Shown here: positions 11,004 to 11,313 of the stretch, in pieces | Position numbering within the stretch: the stretch's first letter is position 1 | How the letters are laid out: each line of letters starts with the position of its first letter | Virus record (IMG/VR): IMGVR_UViG_3300027985_000419 | DNA length: 23,977 bases | Direction: 5' to 3' (one strand) | Origin: a virus | The notes under the pieces: model-generated | The model's input: only the letters and a program-made list of their open reading frames with translations | Database searches by the model: none | What the model was told of the DNA's origin: nothing | Translations under genes and position numbers: made by a program

Positions 11004-11313
11004 CATAAGAGTTACCGTAAGTATGTGGCCCTTTAGGCTTGGCTTAGCCTTGGACCTAGACAGTGCGGTAAACTTAGCAAGCTTCTCTTCAGCCATCCAC
11101 ATCATGGTCTTCTTTTCCCAGCGCTTAAAGATCACGCTAACCTTGACGTGGTGTCCCTTATCTAGGAACTTCTTGACTTGCTTAAGCTTTGTCTTTAGAT
11201 CGTTCTCAGCCGTCTTGGGACGGAAGCGAATTTCCTTGACCTTTCGCTTAGCCTGCTTCTTATTCTCGCGGTCCTTATTGAACCGCTCTTGGTTGTTAAA
11301 AGCTGCTCCTCAT
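11004..11313 (-). CDS. Translation initiation factor IF3 C-terminal-domain-like protein of about 100 aa. There is no in-frame ATG. A 5-codon ATG mini-ORF (11296-11313) overlaps in the -1 frame, suggesting a +1 frameshift or a non-AUG start.
   Basis: KVKEIRFRPKTAENDLKTKLKQVKKFLDKGHHVKVSVIFKRWEKKTMMWMAEEKLAKF aligns with E. coli IF3 [57 protein letters not shown]. The mini-ORF is AAGGAG-6nt-ATG AGG AGC AGC TTT TAA. A +1 slip on the TTTT run gives the IF3-like frame. Confidence 0.55.

Follow-up and report, generated by a model that had tools for sequence, protein, structure and literature searches.

Here we describe a short gene on the minus strand of a 23,977-nucleotide (nt) stretch of viral DNA (IMG/VR virus record IMGVR_UViG_3300027985_000419; hereafter, the window) that in all likelihood represents a stand-alone phage gene for the C-terminal domain of translation initiation factor 3 (IF3) and requires a programmed +1 frameshift at a 'shifty stop' for its expression, of the kind known from prfB, the gene for release factor 2 (RF2). 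We base this reading on the anatomy of the site, on the identity of the encoded domain, and on a frame arrangement that is kept in 13 loci. The features of the gene and its shift site are as follows:

11320..11325, minus strand: Shine-Dalgarno (SD) sequence AAGGAG, read directly, with a 6-nt spacer to the ATG
11296..11313, minus strand: mini-open reading frame (mini-ORF) in the 0 frame, ATG AGG AGC AGC TTT TAA (MRSSF-stop), with its ATG at 11313-11311
11298..11301, minus strand: slippery run TTTT, in which the P-site TTT (11301-11299) can re-pair with TTT at 11300-11298
11296..11298, minus strand: 0-frame stop TAA, the candidate A-site 'shifty stop', with C (11295) as the next base
11004..11300, minus strand: +1-frame ORF of 99 codons, comprising a Lys-rich helical linker (F5-V25) and the IF3 C-terminal domain
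11037..11243, minus strand: IF3_C domain proper (Pfam envelope; product residues 24-92)

The window's SD (CAAGGAGT) forms a duplex with the anti-SD of −8.0 kcal/mol and leads into a mini-ORF that lies out of frame with the IF3-like sequence, an arrangement that an earlier note on this DNA, made from the letters alone, had described accurately to the base. The +1 frame runs from TTT (11300-11298) through AAC AAC CAA and onward to ATG at 11006-11004, and is closed by TAA (11003-11001); upstream, it is closed by a TGA that overlaps the mini-ORF's start (A-TGA, 11312-11310), four codons before the shift-site Phe. The same note had remarked that the IF3-like ORF lacks an in-frame ATG, and this extends to the other canonical starts: over the 55 codons that follow the shift-site Phe codon of the window there is no in-frame ATG, GTG, or TTG, the earliest being the mid-domain GTG at 11135. 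The predicted frameshift product would span 103 amino acids (MRSSF|NNQERF...TVTLM), the first five codons of the mini-ORF encoding its N terminus. The window holds a single instance of a short ATG-initiated ORF combined with a TTTT-stop and at least 90 open +1 codons, and such a combination turns up in 3.7% of shuffled windows. The frame of the mini-ORF stays open farther upstream (11296-11373, minus strand), with a GTG at 11373 and an ATG near 11349. These lie within, or at the 3′ end of, a tRNA-Glu gene and have no SD; the start that we adopt is the SD-led ATG at 11313. Were the mRNA excised from a tRNA precursor, no more than about 35 nt would separate its 5′ end from that ATG.

The ORF downstream of the frame break is a genuine IF3 C-terminal-domain homolog, as several sequence and structure comparisons agree. 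Its translation matched the Pfam family PF00707 at 56.9 bits (cutoff, 34.8 bits; E = 2.1e-15; profile positions 2-73 of 86) and the phage protein family phrog_9787, 'translation initiation factor', at E = 1.3e-13, where only positions 65-164 of 168 align. A profile of the whole family searched against the PDB retrieved residues 72-164 of Thermus thermophilus IF3 (E = 3.5e-14), that is, linker and entire C domain, with the Lys-rich stretch aligned to the IF3 linker. AlphaFold2, run on the window frame plus database proteins, returned a model with a predicted local distance difference test score of 83, in which a helical, Lys-rich linker is followed by a beta-alpha-beta-alpha-beta-beta fold (strands at 21-26, 51-57, 88-90, and 93-98; helices at 32-47 and 67-78). 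All 17 Foldseek matches to this model with E ≤ 0.001 were IF3 or mitochondrial IF3, and superposition on 1tig gave template modeling (TM) scores of 0.72/0.81 and a root-mean-square deviation of 1.4 Å. The earlier note's assignment, made before any profile search, is thus borne out by Pfam, by the T. thermophilus match, and by the 1tig fold. The Pfam search gave no match to the IF3 N-terminal domain (PF05198), so that the window gene consists of linker and C domain only and departs from the canonical two-domain infC layout (N domain-linker-C domain). The family also swaps the usual F-R-G-R-E segment for F-(K/R)-R-W-E-K-K. With 18 invariant columns and a Pfam score above threshold, the domain is under purifying selection.

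The strongest argument for a programmed frameshift comes from relatives of the gene. Those found first were six short IF3_C-only proteins from a protein database, with N termini called just before the conserved KEIRF motif, and one locus from a viral collection. We recovered the DNA of 14 further family members from separate assemblies, and 12 of them share the layout of the window. The resulting 13 loci (the window, L001, L009, L002-L007, L055, L057, L058, and L060) stem from ENA, Logan, IMG/VR, and one NCBI metagenome-assembled genome (MAG), and include L009 on a 177-kb viral contig and L055 on a 400-kb contig. The 12 other proteins are 42-86% identical to that of the window. Gene callers shortened every member found (products of 58-97 amino acids), and one, P0013, was wrongly extended into a tRNA gene.

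Each of the 13 loci presents the same order of elements: a strong SD 3-8 nt ahead of an ATG, three to six codons, TTT, a stop, and the IF3 frame at +1. The mini-ORFs (five to eight sense codons in the 12 other loci) differ in length by whole codons only and differ widely in what they encode (MRSSF, MRRSF, MTRSSF, MRKKSF, MRKYSF, MRVSF [twice], MSGVSF, MRVQSF, MRVESF, MKVQF, MSITKVSF, and MSVLSF). From the SD to the domain, TTTT is the sole invariant block in the 13-locus DNA alignment. TTT is a minor Phe codon (0.29 of Phe codons in the window, 0.21 in L055), yet it occupies the shift site in all 13. It is followed directly by a stop in every case—TAA in six loci, TGA in six, and TAG in one—and because a change of stop also alters the +1-frame residue (Asn, Glu, or Ser), its retention despite varying identity and at a cost to that residue argues for selection for 'a stop here'. 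A stop specific for RF2 is ruled out by the TAG of L009 and by the occurrence of all three stops. The codon before TTT, which would occupy the E site, is AGC in 11 of 13 loci against a usage of 0.14-0.33 among Ser codons, pointing to a nucleotide-level constraint beyond the amino acid.

The spacing tells the same story. The distance from ATG to TTTT is 0 modulo 3 in all loci, and that from TTTT to KEI takes eight distinct lengths between 22 and 64 nt, all of them 1 modulo 3 (for L055, the two distances, 15 and 22, were read by hand, as its automated pattern row was a spurious match). At least seven independent indels have thus all come in threes, an outcome to which a non-coding region would naively give odds of about (1/3)^7. 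We conclude that the stretch from slip site to domain is maintained as coding sequence, contiguous with the TTT. In six of the 13 loci (the window, L001, L009, L005, L058, and L060) no ATG, GTG, or TTG lies between shift site and domain, so that there only a frameshift yields an intact domain. When we scanned about 137 kb of six related loci on both strands, no other gene displayed the ATG-TTT-stop/+1 layout. The +1 slip on TTT-T that the earlier note had proposed for the window, giving MRSSF and then NNQERF, is therefore backed by the same ATG-(three to six codons)-TTT-stop/+1 arrangement in 13 loci. As a separate observation, every one of the 13 mini-ORFs starts with ATGA: the second codon begins with A, and the resulting TGA closes the IF3 frame, ATGAGG opening seven of them. 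This may have to do with initiation efficiency, with the SD-like element, or with keeping the +1 frame closed.

Mechanistically, we picture the following sequence of events, the slip itself and its efficiency being what we infer from this anatomy. A ribosome would initiate at the SD-led AUG (11313) and make Met-Arg-Ser-Ser-Phe, whereupon tRNA-Phe would sit on UUU in the P site and UAA-C would be reached in the A site. During the wait for a release factor, tRNA-Phe could un-pair and re-pair perfectly with the overlapping UUU one base 3′; this would place AAC in the A site and open the way to the Lys-rich linker and the IF3_C fold (103 amino acids, MRSSF-NNQERF...). Ribosomes that terminate instead would release a pentapeptide only. 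Output would thus be a set fraction of initiations, greater when termination is slow. The choice of codon fits this scheme: randomizing the codon that precedes the prfB stop placed UUU among the most slippery ones (PMC10885494), UUU UGA is a listed +1 signal (PMC3500957), and TTT-TGA occurs naturally in the prfB of 21 genomes (PMC12421855).

In the window, two further elements flank the site:

11306..11311, minus strand: internal SD-like GAGGAG, a candidate 5′ stimulator, 4 nt (CAGC) ahead of TTT
11268..11286, minus strand: 7-bp hairpin GCGGUUC-AAUAA-GGACCGC, a candidate 3′ stimulator or pause element, 9 nt past the stop

Both probably aid the slip in the sub-clade of the window. GAGGAG forms an anti-SD duplex of −7.6 kcal/mol, a strength equaled by 1.4% of random 12-nt coding windows. 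At this strength and with the 4-nt spacing, however, it is found only in the window, L001, and L009; weaker SD-like elements lie 3-7 nt away in six loci, and four have essentially none. The stimulator that the earlier note had pointed to (as AGGAG) is thus present in the window with its 4-nt spacer, but belongs to a sub-clade rather than defining the family. The hairpin folds at −11.3 kcal/mol (z = −4.8; 0 of 200 shuffles), and L001 carries a 7-bp counterpart at the same position but with a different sequence (−9.9 kcal/mol; z = −3.7); the residues encoded by the stem arms differ between the two (ER/DR versus GA/AQ), while those of the loop (FNK) are alike. With two sequences only, a conserved 3′ hairpin acting as a stimulator is suggestive, not proven. 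We did not find the hairpin in the other long-linker members checked (L005, L060, and L003), nor was there any family-wide RNA structure around the shift site (z from −1.6 to +0.15). The base after the stop (+4) is C or G in 13 of 13 loci, never U. We considered a weak-termination context at +4 as additional evidence and set it aside, AAC and GAG being preferred codons anyway.

Several observations weigh against the frameshift reading. The 13 loci are related, so that the counts above overstate their independence. The +4 preference is inseparable from codon bias. An SD-like stimulator of the prfB type is not conserved family-wide, and its patchiness means that efficiency may be low in many members. 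A divergent homolog, L059 (ENA ERZ23498374 scaffold_804471, 620-700), has its SD-ATG mini-ORF (MTGIQTRN-stop, eight codons) in the other frame. There, a tRNA-Phe gene abuts a relic of the site, CAC TTT TGA A, which keeps the usual register. Past the relic come a new SD (AAAGGAG) and ATG, no in-frame start is present, and a −1 (or +2) shift would be needed. L059 might reflect another kind of recoding, gene decay, or faulty assembly. Finally, an in-frame ATG, GTG, or TTG lies two to nine codons before KEIRF in seven of the 13 loci, and there a shorter product might arise by internal initiation.

This last point feeds a rival explanation that we regard as improbable, namely, that the mini-ORF is a regulatory upstream ORF (uORF) and that IF3_C is made by termination-reinitiation or from an independent in-frame start downstream. 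Gene callers used these starts, and reinitiation after short ORFs does occur in Escherichia coli, where IF3 overexpression depresses it (PMC2268962), such that a feedback loop could result. What the uORF explanation fails to accommodate are the six loci, the window included, in which no canonical start exists from the stop to the domain (in the window, the first is the GTG at 11135). Even where starts exist they are not always served: in L004 and L007 the sole SD-like sequence, AAGGAG, runs straight into the in-frame ATG without any spacer, and in L006 there is no such sequence. The invariant TTT, the fixed +1 relation, and the threefold indels upstream of those starts would also be left unexplained.

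Cellular infC classically starts with AUU, and an infC-like start at an in-frame non-AUG codon, with the mini-ORF incidental, was the alternative that the earlier note itself had offered. We consider it very unlikely. The Ile codon of KEIRF is indeed ATT in the window, but from the upstream TGA to K-E-I there is no in-frame AUU, AUC, AUA, or CUG, in the window or in most other loci, and the linker behaves as coding sequence. This leaves the Ile28 codon as the only candidate. It follows the invariant and clearly coding K26-E27, varies between ATT, ATC, and ATA across loci, and, as a start, would clip strand beta-1 and discard the conserved linker; the SD, moreover, is positioned for the out-of-frame ATG. 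A certain kinship to the AUU-based autoregulation of infC remains in that IF3 synthesis would begin in a non-standard way and its output could sense the state of the translation machinery. (The discrimination of IF3 against AUU and AUA is discussed in PMC9723500.) The difference is that no in-frame AUU is at hand here, and the unusual step would fall in elongation and termination, not in the choice of start codon.

A change of frame might also be brought about by RNA polymerase slipping on the T run, or by a phage tRNA whose expanded anticodon loop takes UUUU as a single codon. Runs of four to five Ts are far below the lengths known for transcriptional slippage. A quadruplet-reading tRNA has some appeal since this phage is rich in tRNAs, one of which (11938-12012) shows an anticodon loop that is either enlarged to 9 nt or closed by a mismatch. 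None of the 20 tRNA or tRNA-like genes of the window (16 detected by ARAGORN plus four by Rfam), however, qualifies as a quadruplet-reading or suppressor tRNA: no loop contains AAAA or AAA, that of the odd tRNA reads C-GUAAUGA-C, and a quadruplet reader would have no need of the conserved stop. We therefore give both variants very little chance. An artefact or decay—a 1-nt homopolymer error in TTTT, or a pseudogene—deserves almost no credence: homopolymer runs are error-prone and one relative (L061) looks decayed, but the same break recurs in 13 assemblies from different samples and pipelines, with differing flanking codons and stops, and the downstream domain is under clear purifying selection.

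The proposed +1 frameshift is best judged against the systems it resembles. With prfB (CUU UGA C), it shares an early in-frame stop in the A site, a functional protein in the +1 frame, and a P-site codon from a pyrimidine run that re-pairs one base forward, natural TTT-TGA variants of prfB being on record (PMC12421855). In the window, the resemblance extends to an SD-like, purine-rich element close upstream and to the C that follows the stop, and the gene, too, encodes a translation-factor homolog. The differences are equally clear. The prfB stop is UGA in over 99% of cases and otherwise UAA, and is read by the gene's own product, whereas the family uses TAA, TGA, and TAG; the 'hyper-conserved' SD-like element of prfB lies 3 nt upstream, that of the window at 4 nt and without family-wide conservation; the prfB site is at codon 26, that of the family at codons 5-8; and the sub-clade of the window has a 3′ hairpin, while prfB has none. 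The earlier note's label 'RF2-like' accordingly holds for the slippery P-site codon and the A-site stop, but not for RF2 specificity. As the product is not a release factor, the feedback logic of prfB is not directly transferable. Eukaryotic antizyme (UCC UGA, with a 3′ pseudoknot) likewise slips by +1 at a stop, and the hairpins of the window and L001, 8-9 nt past theirs, recall its 3′ element. Antizyme, however, is polyamine-sensing and employs another P-site codon and mechanism, and the hairpins are simple and confined to two known members.

IF3 genes among tRNA and translation genes are known from phages (PMC7162821, PMC11895373). Those of jumbo and huge phages (Vibrio phage 2.275.O, Salmonella phage Munch, Sharanji; Al-Shayeb et al. 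2020) likewise have tRNA and translation-gene neighbors. The jumbo-phage matches carry IF-3 annotations, and phrog_9787, the phage family that matches best, is full length, in contrast to the clade of the window with its C domain only and its frame break. We found no report of a frameshift in phage IF3 genes, and IF3 is mentioned neither in the GeneTack survey of conserved prokaryotic frame transitions nor in PRFect. Very few +1 programmed frameshifts with good support are known from bacteria and their viruses. All CUU-stop +1 frameshifts of the RECODE set belong to prfB (PMC10885494). What our computational analysis would add is a new gene family that relies on a shifty-stop +1 frameshift and in which the stimulators are other than those of prfB. 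If true, this would be a second translation-factor family with a shifty-stop +1 shift, arguing that the mechanism is not an RF2 one-off, and one in phages that uses UUU rather than CUU, accepts any stop, and places the site five to eight codons from the start. The 13 natural variants, with or without the SD-like element and with or without the 3′ hairpin, would then form a series for dissecting stimulators, and the frameshift would explain why these genes are mis-annotated.

As to function, canonical IF3 binds the platform of the 30S subunit, prevents the subunits from joining, and proofreads start codon and initiator tRNA. The isolated C domain of IF3 reportedly carries out most functions of the factor; it binds the 30S subunit, has anti-association activity, and can sustain growth of E. 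coli, while fidelity depends on the N domain (PMC9723500). By homology, the phage product would be expected to bind the 30S subunit as the IF3 C domain does. Such a stand-alone copy could expand or skew the supply of 30S subunits that are ready to initiate, with proofreading relaxed, and a manipulation of start-codon fidelity is plausible for an IF3 that lacks the N domain (PMC9723500). Overexpressed IF3 lowers reinitiation and blocks propagation of M13 (PMC2268962); harm from excess IF3 would thus be a reason for low, conditional output. If the frameshift is real, the stand-alone C domain would be a dosage-sensitive tool for the phage takeover of initiation.

Colliding ribosomes need about nine codons between their A sites (PMC6815119), and with the stop at codons 6-9 a paused ribosome should therefore block the start site that it has just used. 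The decision would then fall to each ribosome singly, without the collisions by which frameshifting on prfB is lowered (PMC6815119). More tentatively, and in our view doubtfully, the site might act as a sensor, in which the balance between slip, termination, and abortive release is set by the termination and recycling capacity of the host and by the product's own IF3-like activity. Such behavior could stem from the pause at codons 6-9, the very short peptidyl-tRNA, and the covered start site, and could amount to an autoregulatory loop that is RF2-like in logic but built around ribosome recycling and initiation. The clade would then tune its reprogramming of host initiation to the state of the ribosome pool. 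An action of IF3 on short peptidyl-tRNAs as the feedback route is speculation; the drop-off treated in PMC10158994 is that of fMet-tRNA at initiation, not of paused short-peptide complexes.

Beyond the 13 loci, relatives become sparse. L061 keeps ATG AAG GTT GAT TTT TAA C, with strand beta-1 deleted or out of frame, and is probably decayed or mis-assembled. An exhaustive profile search, which yielded proteins alone, found P0122 (42% identical) and P0123, both IF3_C-only with an apparently ordinary ATG and a Lys-rich linker; these may form a sister clade whose genes start in the ordinary way. A further IF3_C-only gene, L015, is unrelated and has a TTG start behind a normal SD. Megablast of the region against GenBank phages gave no match, and tblastn retrieved only two-domain jumbo-phage IF3 genes at less than 60% identity. 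Scans of metagenomes and GTDB genomes with the family alignment found no new members, only two-domain cellular IF3 with intact frames, and further viral-contig scans with L057-, P0122-, and P0123-type sequences gave no matches. The phage itself has no close known relative: its ribonucleotide reductase is at most 41% identical to that of any deposited phage.

The gene resides within the dense tRNA array of the window and is probably co-transcribed with it. Its closest neighbors, and one more distant member of the cluster, are:

11349-11423, minus strand: tRNA-Glu(CUC), directly upstream, ending 35 nt before the ATG
10914-10988, minus strand: tRNA-Glu(UUC), directly downstream
15588-15661, minus strand: initiator-like tRNA-Met with a GGG/CCC anticodon stem and a C1 that does not pair with position 72, at a distance of 4.3 kb from the gene

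The last of these closely resembles E. coli tRNAfMet. It belongs to the same cluster, but the gene does not, as the earlier note had it, stand next to an fMet tRNA; its neighbors are the two tRNA-Glu genes. The tRNA island of the window also encodes a CCA-adding enzyme. Across the family, the gene always lies inside a tRNA island, and a tRNA-Glu adjoins it in most loci. The contig of L055 (GCA_043955405.1, JBINOK010000691.1; 400 kb) is labeled as a Nitrospira sp. MAG at NCBI, and the 20 kb around its IF3_C gene hold 36 tRNA genes, EF-Tu, a class-Ib tRNA synthetase, an HNH endonuclease, and a faint Gp23 match; it has the look of a jumbo phage that was binned with a bacterial genome.

The window holds further oddities. 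An ORF for 1028 amino acids (4341-7427, minus strand) matches the Major Vault Protein 'shoulder' (PF11978) at 72.8 bits and, below threshold, a vault repeat (PF17795); it has no PHROG match, and such a protein is unexpected in a phage. About 2 kb within the tRNA array (12414-13274 and 13349-14527) contain no tRNA, Rfam match, or convincing ORF, the longest ORFs there encoding 55-75 amino acids of odd composition. Two of the tRNAs called by ARAGORN, Leu-CAA (10582-10667) and Tyr (10796-10874), are not on the Rfam list. For the tRNA at 11938-12012 (minus strand), called as 'Ile-AAT', the anticodon loop can be drawn in two ways, with 9 nt (C-GUAAUGA-C) or with 7 nt and a C.C mismatch as the closing pair; the same loop core recurs in L001 (2476-2552), there with a C.A mismatch. 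A34 would be unusual for an Ile tRNA of bacteria and phages, and we see no link to the TTT-T site, the loop containing neither AAAA nor UUA. Lastly, the four tRNA-like genes found by Rfam (8481-8552, 8837-8908, 9579-9651, and 13275-13348, all minus strand; 40-47 bits) and missed by ARAGORN carry the T-loop GUGCAAA/G instead of GUUCGAA, and the first three appear to have the anticodons CGU, UGU, and CAU.

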